NCBI GenBank assembly: GCA_963668175.1
Contig: OY764159.1
Span: 2,176,001-2,240,000 of the forward strand
Length of the DNA stretch: 64,000 nucleotides
Source: Syntrophales bacterium
Lineage (GTDB): Bacteria > Desulfobacterota > Syntrophia > Syntrophales > PHBD01
Direction of reading: 5' to 3'
Shown piece by piece: positions 34,958 through 42,803 of this stretch. A program made the position numbers and the translations under genes. Positions within the stretch are counted from its first letter, which is position 1. The number at the start of each line of letters is the position of its first letter. The notes below the pieces were generated by a model. That model was not told the origin of the DNA and did not search any database. It saw only the letters and a program-made list of their open reading frames with translations.

Positions 34958-35419
34958 TCTCGCTTTATCTATACGATCAATCAGTTCCACAATATCCGGG
35001 TTCTTCTTAAAAGGAATGAAACTCATAGGCGGTGAAAAGCTCAGATCTTCTCCAAGTTCGGTCATTCGGCGAAGAGTTATAGTCACTCTTGGCGGGCTAA
35101 CCATTACAGAGTAACTGACATTCTTGATTTCGTTCAGGTTGACCCGGACCTCTTTCTGCCCGTTCTTGAAAAGCAGTGAGGTACCTTCGTCATACACTTC
35201 GTTGATGAGGTCGAAAACCAGTTTCTTCATTATAAAATAGAAGAAGGCCACCATGAAAAGGGGCATGATGATTGGCATAACCGAAGCTAATGAGTAGAAA
35301 TTGGAGCCTTTGGACATCTGAAACAAGGCCGTTACCATGAACAAGCCCAGACATCCGAACAAAAAAATGGGATAAACGGTCTTTAACAGGTATGTGGTTT
35401 TTGATGACAATCTCTTCAT
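34952..35419 (-). CDS. Hypothetical 2-TM protein, AT-rich, integron cassette-like
   Basis: Stop codon TAA lies inside the attC R'' box. Confidence 0.8.
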   Translation of the reverse strand: MKRLSSKTTYLLKTVYPIFLFGCLGLFMVTALFQMSKGSNFYSLASVMPIIMPLFMVAFFYFIMKKLVFDLINEVYDEGTSLLFKNGQKEVRVNLNEIKNVSYSVMVSPPRVTITLRRMTELGEDLSFSPPMSFIPFKKNPDIVELIDRIDKARG

Positions 35420-35446
35420 GTCTATTTTTCAGGATTGACAATTAAT

Positions 35447-35588
35447 ATACCCAATGGGTATTTTCCTATGTTTTGCGCTATACTAATTTATTTTAGGGAA
35501 AATAAAAAGATATTTATCTTGTGAAATCAAGTCTAGCTCTTACCATTGGGTATTTTATGTTAATAAAGACTAAATACCTCGGTGGTTT
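35447..35588. promoter_or_regulatory. AT-rich region with repeated ATACC-N5-GGTAT operator-like palindromes
   Basis: Perfect ATACCCA-A-TGGGTAT at 35447-35461; CCATTGGGTATTTT near 35543; ATACC-TCGGT-GGTTT at 35574-35588. Confidence 0.5.
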
Positions 35589-35677
35589 TTACGGTAATAT
35601 TGTCCAACGCAAGAAAAATCGCCTTCAATGATTACCGATTGGAAGATGCATTGTATTATTAGATCCGGATTACGCAG

Positions 35678-35730
35678 CTTTCAGGAAGCAAGTTGCGGAT
35701 ACCGGTGCCCCCGGTTTGATGCGGTCCGGG
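35678..35730. repeat. Direct repeat copy C (53 bp), immediately downstream of the ferredoxin gene stop
   Basis: CTTTCAGGAAGCAAG...CCGGTTTGATGCGGTCCGGG also at 34607-34659. Confidence 0.9.
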
Positions 35731-35736
35731 GCGCCG

Positions 35737-36744
35737 TTATTTCTTTTCTGTTTCCGGTGTGCCCGGCGTGCGCGGTGCGGCTGACTCTGCGGGTTTGTCG
35801 CGAAGCTCGGCGGGTTCGGCCGTGACGATCCCTTTCCGGGCCTTGAATTTGTTGAAGCCGTAGAGCTTCGTGCCGCTCATCTCCATCTCCATGGCCTCGG
35901 TGGGGCAGTTGTTGAGGCAGCCGAAACAGGCGATGCAGCGGTCGCGGTCGATCGCGGCCGCATCGATGTCGATTGCCTTGACGGGGCAGACGGCGGCGCA
36001 GGTCCCGCAGCGGATGCAGATGCTCCGGTTGATGGCGTGCTTCGCGATCCGCGATTTTGACAGCCTCGCAATGGGCAGGGCGGCGGCGAATTCCCGGAGG
36101 GTGACGTTCCGCGAAAACGTTATGGCCTGGACCTTCCGGATGCGATCCAGGACGGCCGCGCTGAAGGCGCGGACGCGCTCGTACGTCGCCTCGTCCGGCA
36201 GGTGCATGTGGCCCTCGATGCCGGGGCCTTTCCAGTCCGGGAAGGGGAAGGTGCCGATGTTCATGAAGGCGTCCAGTCCCACGGGGACGCCGCCTTTCTT
36301 CGTCAAGCGTTCCAGGATCGAGCAGCCGGCATTGTGCTGGTTCCCTTCCGGGCCGCCGAAGGAGACGTAGGCGGCGGCCGCAATGCCGTCAAGAACGGGC
36401 AGGCCGTCCAGCCATTGCCTCACGTTGGACGGGGCGTCGTAGTACTGGACGGCCGACCCGACGACGACGAGGTCGCAGCCGGGAAGGGCCGCGATGTCGA
36501 ACCGTCGCATGTCGCCGGAGGAAACGGTCAGGCCCGCCAGCTCCAATCTGCGCGCGATCAGCCGGCCGTACCGCTCCGTGTGGCCCGTCTGGCTGTACCA
36601 GAGGACCGCGGCCTTGCGCGGGTCCTTTGTCCTGAGGGGCTTCGCCGCCTCCTGCGTCGCATAGTGCGAACAGCCCGCAGGCCCCAGGGACAATGCCGCA
36701 ACCGCCGCCGCCCCCTTCACGCAAAACGATCGTCTCGTTTCCAT
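35737..36744 (-). CDS. EFR1-like flavodoxin-ferredoxin fusion with Tat-like lipoprotein signal
   Basis: TRRSF...AGC; WYSQTGHT flavodoxin loop; two CxxCxxCxxxCP. Confidence 0.85.
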   Translation of the reverse strand: METRRSFCVKGAAAVAALSLGPAGCSHYATQEAAKPLRTKDPRKAAVLWYSQTGHTERYGRLIARRLELAGLTVSSGDMRRFDIAALPGCDLVVVGSAVQYYDAPSNVRQWLDGLPVLDGIAAAAYVSFGGPEGNQHNAGCSILERLTKKGGVPVGLDAFMNIGTFPFPDWKGPGIEGHMHLPDEATYERVRAFSAAVLDRIRKVQAITFSRNVTLREFAAALPIARLSKSRIAKHAINRSICIRCGTCAAVCPVKAIDIDAAAIDRDRCIACFGCLNNCPTEAMEMEMSGTKLYGFNKFKARKGIVTAEPAELRDKPAESAAPRTPGTPETEKK

Positions 36745-36889
36745 GGTTTCCTCGCTTGTGCGTTTCGTCCGTGTTGTGTATAGAGAATGACATATCAATT
36801 ACAACAGCAGACGGCGCAAAGCAACGGGTTTGTTGCGCCGGGGACGCCGTTCCTGTTCCGATACGGAAACGCAGAAGCCGGAGGGGACG

Positions 36890-37741
36890 ATGATCGTCGA
36901 TTGCCATTGCCACGCCTTTACGGAGCAGGTCGTCCGCAATGTGGTTTCGCGGACGGCGCTGGTGGCGGAACTCAAGCTGGACCCGGAAGCCGGGCGAAGG
37001 GCCGACGCCCGGATTTTAAGCGAATCGGCCGTTGCGCACGGCATCGACTGGTGCATCCTTTTCCCGACGGCCCCTCCGCAGGGTGTGAGGGAGGAGAACG
37101 ACCGCAGCATCGCCGCCGCTTCCTCTCATCCCCGCCTCCGGACCCTGGCGACGCTCCACCCCCGGATGGACGGCCTGGCGGCAGAACTGGAACGGATGCT
37201 CGCCCTGGGGATCGCCGGGTTCAAGTTCTCTTCGTTCTCGCAGCGCTTCGATGTCCTGTCGGAGGAAGCGGGAAGGATGTTTGCGGTTCTGGAAGACGCG
37301 GCCGCCTCGGGCAGGTCGTTCATGGTCGTCCTCGACACGTTCAACCGGGCCGACGTCCACTTCGGGGCCCGTCCGGAGCACATCGCGACGCCCGCGAAGC
37401 TCAACGCCGTCGTCGCCCGCCATCCCGCCCTTTCCTTCCTCGCCGCCCACATGGGAGGCCTCGCGGCCGACTTCGGCCTCATCCGCCGCGACCTGAAACC
37501 GGCCCCTAACCTTTTCCTCGACACGTCCAACGCCGCGCACGTCCTTGCGGAAGGTCAGTTTGTCGAGCTTCTGAAAATCCACGGGGCCGATCGTATTCTT
37601 TTCGGCACGGACTGGCCGTGGTTCGATCACGGCTCCGAAATGGCGCTGATCGACGCCCTTCTGGATTCGGCGGGATTCAGCCGGGCACAGAAAGACGCCG
37701 TTTTCGGCGACAATGCCGCCAGGCTCTTTTCGCTTGACTGA
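36890..37741 (+). CDS. Amidohydrolase family protein (Amidohydro_2-like)
   Basis: IVDCHCH, AAHMGG, LDTS, ILFGTDWP, GDNAARL; RBS GGAGGG. Confidence 0.88.
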   Translation: MIVDCHCHAFTEQVVRNVVSRTALVAELKLDPEAGRRADARILSESAVAHGIDWCILFPTAPPQGVREENDRSIAAASSHPRLRTLATLHPRMDGLAAELERMLALGIAGFKFSSFSQRFDVLSEEAGRMFAVLEDAAASGRSFMVVLDTFNRADVHFGARPEHIATPAKLNAVVARHPALSFLAAHMGGLAADFGLIRRDLKPAPNLFLDTSNAAHVLAEGQFVELLKIHGADRILFGTDWPWFDHGSEMALIDALLDSAGFSRAQKDAVFGDNAARLFSLD

Positions 37742-37831
37742 ACAAAGAAAACACAGAGGAAGGGGAAGAGAGAAGACCGTCAGGGCCGGGCGGCCGTAAC
37801 GGCGGTCGACGAACGGTCGCTGATCCGGCGC

Positions 37832-38116
37832 CTATATCGGCTTCCAGCCGGTGAGACACAGCATCTTGAAACCGAACAGGTTTTGAAGGCCGATCGCCAG
37901 GGGAAAGGGCGACTCGAATCCGACAGGCAGATACACTTTGACCTCGTTGACGACGGACATGCTGTAGTCGCCGGCGTTTTTCGGTATGCCCCGTCTCACG
38001 GACGGACCAAGGTTGATGCGCCCTCAGCAAAGACGCGAGTTCCCCGTGGTGAACAGGTGCACAACGCCGCCTTTGGTCAGCAGGTAATCGCGGGCGGGAT
38101 CGGTGATGGTAAGCAC
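37832..38116 (-). CDS. Probable selenoprotein, HesB-like CC/Se-motif family (94 aa, Sec at codon 31)
   Basis: GTG start with AAAGG RBS; MLTITDPARDYLLTKGG...RLC-U(TGA 38024-38026)-GRINLGPSVRRGIP...VYLP...LFGFKMLCLTGWKPI; frame open for 63 codons after the TGA; absent from the ORF track. Confidence 0.8.
37990..38006 (-). promoter_or_regulatory. Candidate bacterial SECIS hairpin
   Basis: TCCGTC-CGTGA-GACGGG; loop starts 23 nt after the UGA, with G at loop position 2. Confidence 0.6.
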
Positions 38117-38559
38117 GACGATGCCTTTCTGTTTTTTGCTTTACGCCGGTCCGCAATGACCGGGCCGTTTCATTATTCAAAGGGACCCGACCAGTAAGCC
38201 GGGCGTTGCCTTCCCCTGCACCATTTCTTCGCTGGAAGAGACCCCCTCCCCGGAATCAAGCGTTATGGCCTTCCGCTCAAGACTTCCGGCCGTCCGCCGT
38301 CAGATATCCCAACGACCGTGACATTATAGCACGGAAAGGGGGGATTTAAGAAAACAACTTTTCGCGATGCGATCTTTATTAAAACCCTCGGCGATGGGCA
38401 ATAAAACAGAATGGGAGCGGGAGAGCTTCCGCAATATTCAGGACCGGGGGCGATTTCCATCCGGAAAGGAATAAGACGCCCTGATATCGGGTGGAAGAAC
38501 AGGTTGCCCTCCGATCAGGAGCAGGCATCGCCGGAATGCTTTGATTCTGCCGGGCCGTT

Positions 38560-39087
38560 CTATCTCTGTCTCTTCGCGATTTCTTTCAAACGGCTGCCGG
38601 CGAAAGGCTGGAAGGCGAACTGGGCCTCGGACTGGATGCTCGGGCAGCACATGGCGTCGCTCGGCGCGTAATTCTTTGTCGGTACGGCAACGACGACGTC
38701 GTTCTTCGATCGTCTCATTTTGATGTTGCCGGATTCGACGGCGCGTATGCCCTTGCCGCCCACGGCCATGACGTCGATCAGGCTCATCCTCGGCGGGCGG
38801 CCCGCCGCTTCGGCATCCAGGGACGCAAAGACGGCCATGTACTGGATGTGATTGTTGCCGCCGCCGAAGCCCTCAATCGTGAAGACCGCAACAGCCACGG
38901 TTGTGCCGTCCCGGTCCGTCGCGATCCGGATACCGCGGTATTCGGGGGACGAGACGGAATGCGAATCGCCCAGCATCGCCGCCAGCGCCGTCACCCTGGC
39001 GCCGACGTCGTCCCTGATCGCCCGGTCGTCGGCATGAGACAGAACGGGAACAAGTACCAGCAGTGCAGCAAGAATAAATCTTTTCAT
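38560..39087 (-). CDS. Hypothetical secreted protein (DAMCCPS motif)
   Basis: Signal peptide MKRFILAALL...SHA; RBS AAAGGA. Confidence 0.75.
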   Translation of the reverse strand: MKRFILAALLVLVPVLSHADDRAIRDDVGARVTALAAMLGDSHSVSSPEYRGIRIATDRDGTTVAVAVFTIEGFGGGNNHIQYMAVFASLDAEAAGRPPRMSLIDVMAVGGKGIRAVESGNIKMRRSKNDVVVAVPTKNYAPSDAMCCPSIQSEAQFAFQPFAGSRLKEIAKRQR

Positions 39088-39163
39088 GTCTTCATTCCTT
39101 TCGGCGTAACGCCTCGATGGCGCGGGGATTCCCGCAAAAAACGTCCGGCGCGGCTTTGCGCGG

Positions 39164-40195
39164 TCAGGCCGCCGTGTCGTCGTCCCCGCCGATGAAGAGT
39201 CTCCGGCATTCGCGGACATCTTCGCGCTGTTCGGGGGTGTCGCCGGTGGCGCTGTAGTGGCACGTCGTGCAGGGTGCGGCCTTGGGCCCATAGCGGTAGA
39301 GGGCCTTGCGCCAGGCGACGAAGCGGCTGTTCGACCAGAGGAGGAAGATGTCCGTGTCCGCTTCGATCCGTCCCAGGACGTACTTTTCATGTTCCGGCAG
39401 GTCGGGGTAAATGTTGCAGCAGGGCAGCACCCGGCCGTCCCATTCGACCTGAAGCTCCGTGAAGGAGATGAGGCAGGGGTCGGTGCGCGAGTAGTTGGTC
39501 GCGAAGGCGAGGCTCTGCCCCCGGTCGAGCATGTTCGGGACGCCGTCGGCGTTCCGGTAGTAGTAGTCGATGGCGTTCCACGACACGAGCATACCTTCCC
39601 CCGCGTCCACGAAGGCGATGCGCGCGTCCTCCCTGTTTTGCATGTAGTGAAAAGCGAGGCCGAGGCGACGCAGCGCCTCGTCCTGCCTGTGGAAGATGCC
39701 TTCGGGGGCCGTTTCGCCCGGCAGGGCGTGGGTCGTCGCCAGGATCTGAGACACGCCCGCCGCCTTCAGTTCGAAAACGATTTCCTTCGTCAGGTAGTCG
39801 CCGTTGGTGACGACGGCTACGGTGACATCCGGGAGTGCGGCCCGTATTTCACGAACGCGCCTGAGGGCGTAGTCCTTGTCTGCGAGGGGCTCGTTGTACC
39901 GGTGCAGGGCGACCCTTCCCGCGTAGCCGATGGACCTGAGCTGATCGAGGATGGAGGCCATGACGCCGTCGTCGATGAGGTTCCGGGCGGAGCGCCTGTC
40001 CGTGACGGCGTTGGGGCAGTAGGGGCAGACCCGGTTGCAGTAGCTCGATATGGATATCTCCACGTTGGCGACGGAGGCCTTGAACAGCCGGGCCGCCGTG
40101 TCACGGTCGAGACGGTCCTGAAAATGTTCGCGATAGATGTTGACGACCACGTGCCTGCCCCCGGTTGCGCCGTGAAGTATGAGACTTGTCTCCAT
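39164..40195 (-). CDS. Radical SAM protein with SPASM/twitch domain
   Basis: CNRVCPYC, YNEPL, TNGDYL, C-x9-DG.VLPCC...C..C. Confidence 0.9.
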   Translation of the reverse strand: METSLILHGATGGRHVVVNIYREHFQDRLDRDTAARLFKASVANVEISISSYCNRVCPYCPNAVTDRRSARNLIDDGVMASILDQLRSIGYAGRVALHRYNEPLADKDYALRRVREIRAALPDVTVAVVTNGDYLTKEIVFELKAAGVSQILATTHALPGETAPEGIFHRQDEALRRLGLAFHYMQNREDARIAFVDAGEGMLVSWNAIDYYYRNADGVPNMLDRGQSLAFATNYSRTDPCLISFTELQVEWDGRVLPCCNIYPDLPEHEKYVLGRIEADTDIFLLWSNSRFVAWRKALYRYGPKAAPCTTCHYSATGDTPEQREDVRECRRLFIGGDDDTAA

Positions 40196-40465
40196 CGCCG
40201 TACCCTTTTTCCGGGAACTTGTCAATTGCCGGAGAAGGGCTGGCTGCCGGCGGCACATCGCCGGTGCGAAGTCCGGACGTCCGTCCGGGCGGCAGCAGCG
40301 CCCCCTGCCGGGACCGGCTTTTCCGTTGCTTTTCGGCCCCGATTCCGTTAAAGGTAGGAACGCGCCGGGGCAGTCCCGGGCTGCGTATCGTCCGCGGCGG
40401 GTTGCCCGCCCAGCGGGTTTGGGGCCGGCCTTTGCGGCAAACGGCGCCTCTTGGGGAGACCCGCA

Positions 40466-41494
40466 ATGAACGTCCTTTTCCTGACATACCCGTATCCCAA
40501 TTATGTCCCCGATCTGCTCCTCCACGGCCTGAGGAAACTCCTGGGACCGGCGGTCGTCGATTACCCGAGGAAGGACAGCCTCTACCGGGGCGAGATCTTC
40601 GGCGTGGCCCCGGAGGATCAGCTGATTTCCCGTCTGTTCCCGCCGGAGGACACCGCCATCGACCGGGAGGACATCGCCGGCAAAATCGAAAAGGGTTTCT
40701 TCCGATACATCGTCTGCGACAGCCGCCTGGTGGCCGAAACGGTCGCGACGGACGGCGACCGCGCCCTGATGCGTTTCGGCGGCATCCGTTCCATCCCGCT
40801 GTTTCAGGACGAAACCCGGCCCCTGCCGCGGGGGCTCGCCCTCATCGACGGGAACGATTACCCCTTTCCCATTCCGCCCGGCCCCTACGTCGTCTGCCGG
40901 AGAGAGACGGACGGGACCGACGGCACCGTTCCCCTGCCCATGGCCCTGCCGGAGGAGATCTGGCAGTGGATTCACGCCTACAGGAGAGAGCCCAAGGCCT
41001 ATTCCGTGGGTTTCCTGGGCAGCAACCGGCCCTTCTTCCACGGCGAAGACCGGAGCGGCCTCATGGAAGCCATCGCCGCGCGCTACCCCGACAGCCTGCT
41101 CGGTATGTCCGCGATCCCCACGGCGGATACGCCGAGCCCCTCGGGCAGGATGGGCCGGGACGACTATTACCGCGGCCTCCAGCAGTGCCGCGTCGTCCTC
41201 AGCCTGCGGGGCGAGGGCTACGACACGTTCCGGTTCTGGGAGAACGCGGCCTGCTCGGCCGTGCACGTCGCCCAGCGGATGCCGCTCTACATTCCCGACG
41301 ATTTCGAACACGGCCGCAGCATCCTCCGGTTTTCCGACGCGGACGAGATGATCCGGCTGATCGACATGGTCCTCGACGGGAGCATCCGGGGCGAATGGAT
41401 CGTGCAGGAGAGCCACCGCCGTCTTGCCCGATACCACACGACGGAAAGGCGGGCCGCCTATTTCCTGGACAGGATGAAGGCGTCTTTTTCGTGA
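40466..41494 (+). CDS. Glycosyltransferase-like protein (GT-B C-terminal, CgeB/exostosin-like)
   Basis: VGFLG...R...Y...L...RVVLSLRGEGYDTFRFWENAAC. Confidence 0.7.
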   Translation: MNVLFLTYPYPNYVPDLLLHGLRKLLGPAVVDYPRKDSLYRGEIFGVAPEDQLISRLFPPEDTAIDREDIAGKIEKGFFRYIVCDSRLVAETVATDGDRALMRFGGIRSIPLFQDETRPLPRGLALIDGNDYPFPIPPGPYVVCRRETDGTDGTVPLPMALPEEIWQWIHAYRREPKAYSVGFLGSNRPFFHGEDRSGLMEAIAARYPDSLLGMSAIPTADTPSPSGRMGRDDYYRGLQQCRVVLSLRGEGYDTFRFWENAACSAVHVAQRMPLYIPDDFEHGRSILRFSDADEMIRLIDMVLDGSIRGEWIVQESHRRLARYHTTERRAAYFLDRMKASFS

Positions 41495-41531
41495 AGGCGG
41501 AAGGACAGGGCTGCCGGTCTTTCTCGATTGG

Positions 41532-42557
41532 TCATCGGCTGCGTCTGCGTCCGACGACGCGGAGGCTCAAGGCGGCCGTGACCTCGACGAAACCTTCCGG
41601 TCTTTCCAGCAGTTCCCGGTAGAAGGCGGATACGCCTTCGCTGGCCTCGACGTCGTGAAAGGCGATGAGGCCGTCCCGATGGACGAATGGCGACCAGCAC
41701 TCGAAATCCCGCTTCGAGGCTGCGTAGGAGTGGTCCCCGTCTATGAAAAGAAGGCGGATGGGCCGGTTCCATCCCAATACGGCCTGTTCGGAAGGGGCGA
41801 CGATCGGGTCGATCCAGTCGGCCACGCCCATGGCTTCGATGTTATGCCGGAAGCGGCGATACGTCGAGCCCTCTTCGAGGATGACCTTCTCTTCCTGGTT
41901 CTCCGGCGACCCCTGGAAGTGATCGACGGCCGTCACGCATTCCCGCCCCTTGCTGCGGGAGCCCGCGGCCAGGCAGTAAGTCGATTTTCCCATCCATGAG
42001 CCGATTTCCACGATCTCCCCGTTTCCGCCGCCGTCCGCCGCCAGCATCGAAAGGGTGTAGCCCTCGAGGCACCTCAGCCAACCTTCGAGCTGAAAAACGG
42101 TCCGGCAGAACGGCGGGAAATCTTTTTCCAGGCCGTCGAAGATGCCGCGCAGTTCCGGGAAGTCGCGATGGACCTTCAGGGCCGCCCTGCTCGCCACGAC
42201 CGCGTCAGCCATCTCTTCCACGCGGCCGTTGTCTTCCAGCATCGTGACGAGATTGAAAAACGGTCCGGTATCTTCGGGGACCAGGGCTATTGCCTGACGT
42301 AAGAAAGCGGCGGCTTCGTCGAATCTCCTCAGGCGCCAGCTGCATTTGCCCATGTTGTTGAGGGTGCGGTAGTCTCCGGGGCGGAGTTCGAGGGATTTGT
42401 TATAGCAGGCAAGGGCGCGGTCGTCCTCGCGGCGCTCTTCGAAGGCGTTTCCGAGGGCGAAGTACCATTCGGCGTTGTTCGGGTCGGACGCTATCCTTTC
42501 CATGATGAAGGATATCCGTTCGTCCGTCGCGAAGTCGGGGACTTTCGTCGATGTCAT
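41532..42557 (-). CDS. TPR repeat plus class I SAM methyltransferase (Methyltransf_24-like)
   Basis: N-terminal TPRs; VEIGSWMGKST, VDHF, FIDGDHSY, FHD. Confidence 0.85.
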   Translation of the reverse strand: MTSTKVPDFATDERISFIMERIASDPNNAEWYFALGNAFEERREDDRALACYNKSLELRPGDYRTLNNMGKCSWRLRRFDEAAAFLRQAIALVPEDTGPFFNLVTMLEDNGRVEEMADAVVASRAALKVHRDFPELRGIFDGLEKDFPPFCRTVFQLEGWLRCLEGYTLSMLAADGGGNGEIVEIGSWMGKSTYCLAAGSRSKGRECVTAVDHFQGSPENQEEKVILEEGSTYRRFRHNIEAMGVADWIDPIVAPSEQAVLGWNRPIRLLFIDGDHSYAASKRDFECWSPFVHRDGLIAFHDVEASEGVSAFYRELLERPEGFVEVTAALSLRVVGRRRSR

Positions 42558-42803
42558 AACCCGTCCGTTTGGGGTCCGAAAGGAATTATGCCATATTCGG
42601 GGAGGAACGGCAACGGCGATTATTCGTTCGAAGGGAAGCCTGTTCCCCGTTTGGAACCGCATGCCCCGGCTTGCCCGCCCGATGAGCGCAGCCAGGCGTG
42701 GCCGTTTCCGCAGGCGTCCCGATTTTTCCTTGCTTTATGAAGGAATAAGATGCACGCTGTTTCACACCGGCGAAAACAATAACGCAAACGCGAGAAGTGC
42801 CGC

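Follow-up and report, generated by a model that had tools for sequence, protein, structure and literature searches.

The window analysed here, a 64,000-nucleotide stretch from a Syntrophales bacterium, carries on its minus strand, at 37832..38116, a 94-codon gene with a GTG start and a TAG stop (37834-37832) that is assigned, from its reading frame and an HMM match, to the CC/Se-motif family (NF041239) and that would encode a 94-aa selenoprotein; in close relatives a Met stands at the same start position. Codons 30 and 31 are TGC-TGA (38024..38029, minus strand; the TGA at 38026-38024), very likely read as Cys30 followed by Sec31, with Cys-Cys aligned at this place in homologues and a TGA at the same place in relatives, and 63 sense codons separate the TGA from the stop. 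A weak Shine-Dalgarno-like AAAGG on the same strand (38124..38128) lies 7 nt before the start. The GTG start, the AAAGG ribosome-binding site, the Cys before the TGA, the 63 further codons and the translation quoted in the original prediction were all confirmed in the sequence, as was its remark that the ORF track had missed the gene: the standard list of open reading frames (at least 60 aa) is without the 38116-37832 gene. Ordinary gene finders cut the gene at the internal UGA, an annotation miss that is corrected here. Two shadow ORFs that overlap the gene, 37677-38180 on the minus strand and 37883-38197 on the plus strand, were rejected because relatives keep the Cys-TGA frame.

The gene stands alone, with a convergent amidohydrolase gene downstream and, upstream, a 444-nt gap and an unannotated ORF. 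Further upstream, at 39164-42662, lies an unrelated cluster encoding a radical SAM/SPASM protein, a glycosyltransferase-like protein and a TPR-methyltransferase fusion. By eye, a possible extended -10 promoter element, TGCTATAAT, can be made out on the minus strand at 38323..38331, about 205 nt upstream of the start, which would imply a long leader of about 200 nt; a two-hexamer promoter scan returned 0 sites and did not call TGCTATAAT. The leader (38331-38117) has no riboswitch or 6S RNA match in a search of 35000-41000 against Rfam, in which the single sub-threshold match, to lin-4, falls outside the leader and was taken as chance, and its folding is like that of its shuffles (z 0.04). A small GC hairpin is present in the leader at 38167-38147.

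The protein obtained by reading through the TGA matches the NCBIfam model NF041239 ('CC/Se motif family (seleno)protein') at 57.8 bits (cut-off 40, E 8.6e-16) over residues 2-91 (profile 3-91 of 91), that is, on both sides of the TGA, and the same model scores 53.2 bits on the DNA with the stop read through. A HMMER search of 1.84 billion representatives returned 68 relatives at E <= 0.001. Because the NF041239 match covers both sides of the TGA and 68 relatives were found, the read-through frame is far beyond chance. We aligned the 50 near-full-length relatives with the query (alignment A2, 51 rows) and excluded the other 18, which were fragments or else long or repetitive proteins; all 51 rows match NF041239, and Cys occupies positions 30 and 31 in at least 90% of them, so that the search for homologues with Cys at the aligned position, proposed with the original prediction as a check, returned Cys-Cys proteins. 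Fragments in the database are split at this point: P0052, with 77% identity, runs as far as the aligned Cys, and the sequences of P0002, P0003 and P0013 begin after that Cys. Other searches yielded little: Pfam holds no family for the protein, none of its families matching more than 1 of the 51 alignment members; a PDB sequence search with profile A2 gave 0 matches at E <= 10; a word-indexed homologue search retrieved two 3' fragments only; a single-protein exact-peptide scan of metagenomes produced 209 pattern matches and 0 confirmed ones; and a genome-contig scan with alignment A3, built on a Cys-Cys pattern, found 2 loci, both Cys-Cys as that pattern dictates.

The assignment to the CC/Se-motif family, which the original prediction had drawn from the layout of residues, is thus borne out by the NF041239 score above cut-off, and the gene is a new member of an already catalogued family, not a new kind of system. 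The family appears as a predicted selenoprotein family in Table 1 of a 2026 review of prokaryotic selenoproteins, with the motif CxxU and WP_265736915.1 as its representative (PMC13188914), and a hypothetical protein of Moorella thermoacetica in the table of another paper belongs to it (PMC9312934). The window protein has the same length as NF041239 members and, like them, a Cys-Cys/Sec loop near residue 30, but its motif is a vicinal CU, not the CxxU of the review. Since CU, UC, UxC and lone-U forms pass or approach the NF041239 model, the difference probably reflects variation within the family, CxxU being the table entry for one representative and not the definition of the HMM. Among the papers searched, only PMC13188914 names NF041239, PF28096 or the family, and none gives a function; neither the main text of bioRxiv 10.1101/2022.07.06.499078 nor that of PMC13326102 names it. 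A vicinal Cys-Sec form is thereby added to a family tabulated as CxxU, although original predictions or supplements beyond the literature covered may already list CU forms.

In metagenomes, a search for Cys-TGA-Gly plus the next eight codons with third positions free, a pattern that shows recurrence and not frequency, identified 32 loci: in 26 the frame runs through to the same C-terminus, in 2 a contig end truncates it and in 4 it is broken. The loci comprise 21 distinct 60-nt stretches, the window counted. When no TGA was demanded, 17 of the 401 genomes in a sample of the phylum matched NF041239, and a single TGA falls in the same loop in 17 of the 22 matches, most often in the form Gly-Sec with no Cys ahead of it. 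The match rate was 65/251 genomes in the class of a Pelosinus record (G490; Pelosinus belongs to the Negativicutes), whose top 30 loci, again with no TGA demanded, comprise 12 CU, 14 CC and 4 G-U-C genes. In the organism's own order 28 of 251 genomes match, and the 10 closest other loci are 6 CU and 4 CC; in its own family, no NF041239 member was found in the 8 genomes searched.

Several further forms were seen among the relatives. A subfamily in the same phylum (L018-L029 and L033-L035) has a lone Gly-Sec without an adjacent Cys; its proteins carry a C-terminal Cys, frequently within A-A-C or A-C-C, that could restore an IscA-like ligand set. At L095, L096, L098 and L099 the motif is G-U-C, with Sec first in the pair and one extra residue, and the hairpin described below keeps an unchanged distance from the UGA. 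At L076 (G555:C1:2420787-2421340) a CU gene is followed directly by a second, more distant homologue in tandem. The deep part of the family tree has little resolution, with 15 of 40 inner branches starred, and for this reason we draw no conclusion as to an ancestral Sec or Cys state.

The complete 4.57-Mb genome encodes SelA, SelB and SelD above cut-off together with a tRNA-SeC(tca), so that the check for selA, selB, selC and selD proposed with the original prediction found a complete set; selD is itself of the Sec type, with one in-frame TGA of its own. Because selA was present in 5/5 TGA-form genomes tested and equally in 5/5 Cys-form genomes tested, its presence does not separate Sec from Cys forms. 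The genome carries CU, CC and SW versions of the family. The SW version, outside the window (L002, G000:C1:882239-882517, plus strand), shares 53% identity with the window protein and clusters with its gene at 100/91 support; it has AGC-TGG (Ser-Trp) in place of TGC-TGA, retains part of the hairpin (-11.5 kcal/mol) and shows TCG at the usual start position with AGGAG before it; by its sequence it looks like a duplicate that has lost both active-site residues, either a pseudogene or a gene of changed function. The CC version (L001, G000:C1:766344-766622, plus strand; NF041239 70.2 bits) is more distant and sits after proA, nadD and a small ORF, neighbours that were named from reading their sequences.

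Against this background we weighed the possibility that the TGA is a true stop, that is, a recent nonsense allele, a sequencing error in a Cys-Cys gene, or the end of a 30-aa peptide, with the 3' part a separate fragment. A single base change turns TGC or TGT into TGA, Cys-Cys homologues exist in selA-bearing genomes (all five tested), including the Cys-Cys paralog of this genome, and the sister paralog L002 looks decayed. Nevertheless, the TGA is found at this very codon in genes that average about 56% nucleotide identity and come from at least two separate lineages sampled, the frame is kept on both sides of it, the hairpin codons are constrained in TGA genes only, and every TGA-form genome tested has selA. 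As for a read error, contigs of runs X1 and X2, which stem from one sample that is possibly the source, are identical to the window at the locus, letter for letter, and show no difference at the TGA; run X1 also holds a depth-2 contig of a relative of about 87% identity that spans the site, whose letters at the TGA were not read. Taken with these observations, a true stop is very improbable.

A putative bacterial SECIS hairpin lies within the coding sequence at 37987..38009 (minus strand), as indicated by folding, by constraint on synonymous sites and by the difference between TGA and Cys genes. In this TCCGTC/CGTGA/GACGGG element a 6-bp stem pairs 38006-38001 with 37995-37990, extended by two outer pairs, and the loop CGUGA (38000-37996) starts 23 nt after the UGA and has a G at position 2, followed by U. 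The hairpin is the minimum free energy (MFE) structure of both a 32-nt stretch (-10.9 kcal/mol) and a 67-nt stretch, and folding 52 nt from the UGA onward favours another pairing. The constraints listed for bSECIS elements are a loop of 3-9 nt, a stem of 4-16 bp, a G in the first two loop positions, a spacing of 16-37 nt and an MFE <= -7.5 (PMC13188914); in the window hairpin the loop is 5 nt, the stem 6 bp, the spacing 23 nt and the energy -10.9 kcal/mol. Our own implementation of this rule was passed by the window site and by the selD of the genome, and it was also passed by 239 of 1500 random TGA triplets of the genome, a low specificity that tempers the predictor check proposed with the original prediction. 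Folding was no more distinctive at this single site, with z -1.06 against shuffles (28/200 of which fold as well) and p = 0.137 against synonymous recoding of the gene itself. Because shuffles and 239/1500 random TGAs do as well, the window hairpin alone proves little: it is weak and not beyond chance. The SECIS-like hairpin of the original prediction therefore stands in its structure, its 23-nt spacing and its loop G, but not in its single-site significance.

Comparison between relatives is more telling. In a dereplicated set of 12 CU genes, whose mean nucleotide identity is 56% and whose GC3 spans 0.32-0.76, the most frequent third base accounts for 0.85 of codons at the 5 four-fold sites in the hairpin compared to 0.48 at the 11 four-fold sites outside it. 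In the class of G490, TCC for Ser39 and GTG for Val40 are each used by 11/12 CU genes compared to 2/14 and 3/14 CC genes, respectively, and the mean hairpin energy is -10.6 in CU and -3.7 in CC genes. The hairpin beats a synonymous-recoding null at p <= 0.05 in 9/12 CU and 0/14 CC genes of this class, a comparison in which the null is GC3-matched but the groups include close kin and differ in GC3 (0.54 vs 0.36), so that 9/12 vs 0/14 overstates independence. The corresponding counts are 0/4 for the G-U-C genes and, in the own order, 3/6 CU vs 0/4 CC. A consensus fold of 18 CU sequences gives this hairpin again; covariation support is thin, as changes on both sides occur in 2 of its 7 pairs and 4 of the 18 rows break one pair. 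Across the relatives compared, the hairpin tracks the UGA, being retained in UGA-bearing relatives only.

By established bacterial Sec biology, SelB bound to a hairpin just 3' of the UGA would deliver Sec-tRNA(Sec), and by this analogy we regard recoding of the UGA through SelB, the in-frame hairpin and Sec-tRNA as almost certain. The selenoprotein claim of the original prediction is thus supported by the family match, the Cys/TGA pairing, the full Sec machinery and the hairpin that co-occurs with the UGA in relatives, a body of evidence that comes from comparison of genes and genomes.

An AlphaFold2 model computed from the 51-row alignment has a pLDDT of 88.4, the motif residues 21-40 being the least confident (pLDDT 70-72). 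In Foldseek the top 12 rows are almost all of the IscA/SufA/HesB type, with E values of 0.01-0.39 and TM scores up to 0.63 (the latter for a SufA row at E 0.015), and no row reaches E <= 0.001, the best being at 0.01. VIA-align placed IscA first (Z 9.4, rmsd 3.2, 87 aligned), followed by SufA (9.0) and DsrR (8.6), with 2.7 for the best unrelated chain. An IscA/HesB fold is therefore predicted for the selenoprotein from these model comparisons; a shared fold shows no function. A profile comparison with the genome's IscA-like protein places the motif opposite that protein's first-cysteine loop, at a low probability of 11% (pairwise E 0.0026). The HesB-like character proposed in the original prediction accordingly holds at the level of fold, in both Foldseek and VIA-align, but not at the level of sequence, with no match at the locus to TIGR01911 (cut-off 66.35 bits) at E <= 1 and none to PF01521. 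Elsewhere in the genome, an IscA/HesB-like protein that ends in CGGGCSCC (L100, G000:C1:4440826-4441164, minus strand) scores below the TIGR01911 cut-off and is not picked up by PF01521.

How far the likeness goes can be judged against known systems. The A-type carriers IscA, SufA and ErpA (PF01521) and DsrR resemble the window protein in predicted fold (Z 8.0-9.4 over 83-87 residues) but share 6-13% identity with it, PF01521 gives no match to it, and the window gene, unlike A-type carrier genes, lies outside any isc/suf/nif operon. A-type carriers have three conserved cysteines (PMC10301553), whereas the window protein ends in GWKPI without a C-terminal cysteine pair, and its Cys87 is not conserved. 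The protein thus looks like an A-type carrier in fold but, because the C-terminal cysteine pair is absent, is not a classical three-cysteine member. The HesB-like selenoprotein family TIGR01911 (UxGP), which has been shown to be a selenoprotein in Methanococcus and whose function is unclear (PMC11097638), is similar in its small IscA-related fold and in its Sec, which lies in the same N-terminal loop and precedes Gly and Pro, but its motif differs from CU and its HMM misses the locus. Other CU selenoproteins, namely those of the SAO system, HgcA and the YbdD/YjiX forms of DUF466, share the vicinal Cys-Sec, a dipeptide described as relatively rare (bioRxiv 10.1101/2022.07.06.499078), but they give no sequence family match to the window protein and differ in fold class or motif position; no SAO locus was found among the genes scanned around the window gene. 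Our main reading, to which we assign a probability of roughly 0.9, is that of a stand-alone NF041239 gene whose UGA very likely encodes Sec, giving a 94-residue protein of predicted IscA/HesB fold in which Cys30-Sec31 is the likely reactive site.

Since none of the window neighbours (amidohydrolase, flavodoxin/ferredoxin, radical SAM and putative exported protein) recurs in the fetched loci, a function finds no local support. As a best guess, held at somewhat less than even odds, the protein could be a thiol/selenol accessory for metal or Fe-S enzymes, small and soluble, whose vicinal thiol/selenol would bind a metal or Fe-S ligand or reduce client cysteines, and which in an anaerobe would aid the maturation or protection of such enzymes. 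The redox character that the original prediction ascribed to the selenoprotein is, likewise, something we infer.

Gene neighbourhoods in relatives point in two more specific directions. The first is hydrogenase maturation. In the class of G490 the gene lies directly after hyaD-hupH of a [NiFe]-hydrogenase operon in 8/12 CU but 0/14 CC loci, with overlapping stop and start in two of the hupH-linked loci and one CU locus lacking upstream DNA, and the order hyaD-hupH-family gene recurs in 7 of the 32 metagenome loci. This arrangement fits a true Fe-S carrier, a dimer or tetramer in which four thiol/selenol ligands from Cys-Sec pairs replace the three cysteines of IscA and for which the hydrogenase small subunit would be one client. 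The modelled IscA/SufA fold over the whole chain and the alignment, at 11% probability, of the motif with the first-cysteine loop of the IscA-like protein argue in the same direction, as does the finding that hydrogenase small subunits in E. coli depend on the A-type carriers IscA and ErpA (PMC3283652). However, the single Cys/Sec loop without a C-terminal pair contrasts with the three cysteines of A-type carriers (PMC10301553), many family members have Sec but no neighbouring Cys (G-U-G/A/R), and the hydrogenase link is confined to genomes that are related to one another, with no family gene adjoining the hydrogenase operon of this genome. We therefore consider a true carrier unlikely.

The hyaE gene normally lies between hyaD and hyaF/hupH. 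In the hyaABCD-hupH operons that are closed by a Cys-Sec gene, there is no hyaE-like gene between hyaD and hupH. A further speculation, to which we give about as little weight as to the carrier, is that the Cys-Sec subfamily represents a selenium-using, truncated A-type-carrier fold that would act as a dedicated maturation factor, handing over or protecting the Fe-S clusters of the small subunit via its vicinal Cys-Sec.

The second direction is cstA, which lies within about 1.5 kb of the gene in 7 of 22 own-order loci (CU at L101-103, CC at L108-110 and another CC subfamily at L121) and also adjoins it in one metagenome lineage as well as in L030 and L031, two distant members. By analogy with YbdD/YjiX (DUF466, with a C-terminal Cys-Cys or Cys-Sec), the protein might assist CstA, the pyruvate/peptide transporter, as a small regulatory or accessory partner: in E. 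coli, CstA works with the small protein YbdD as a pyruvate uptake system (PMC5847655), and DUF466, which adjoins cstA, has Cys-Sec forms too (bioRxiv 10.1101/2022.07.06.499078). On the other side, the orientation to cstA varies between tandem and divergent, the cstA of this genome is about 0.8 Mb from the window gene and has no family gene adjoining it, none of the 30 loci in the class of G490 has cstA nearby, and the protein is unrelated to DUF466 (no Pfam match). Such a partnership is, to our mind, improbable, and less likely than either hydrogenase-linked proposal; the general thiol/selenol accessory remains our best guess.

For the family, the comparison of CU and CC genes offers a clean case of a putative SECIS accommodated in the synonymous codons of G-P-S-V-R-x-G and lost in Cys-Cys relatives. 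The predicted IscA fold together with the hupH and cstA neighbourhoods provides testable leads on family function, and the maturation-factor reading, if true, would give this IscA-fold selenoprotein family its first defined client.
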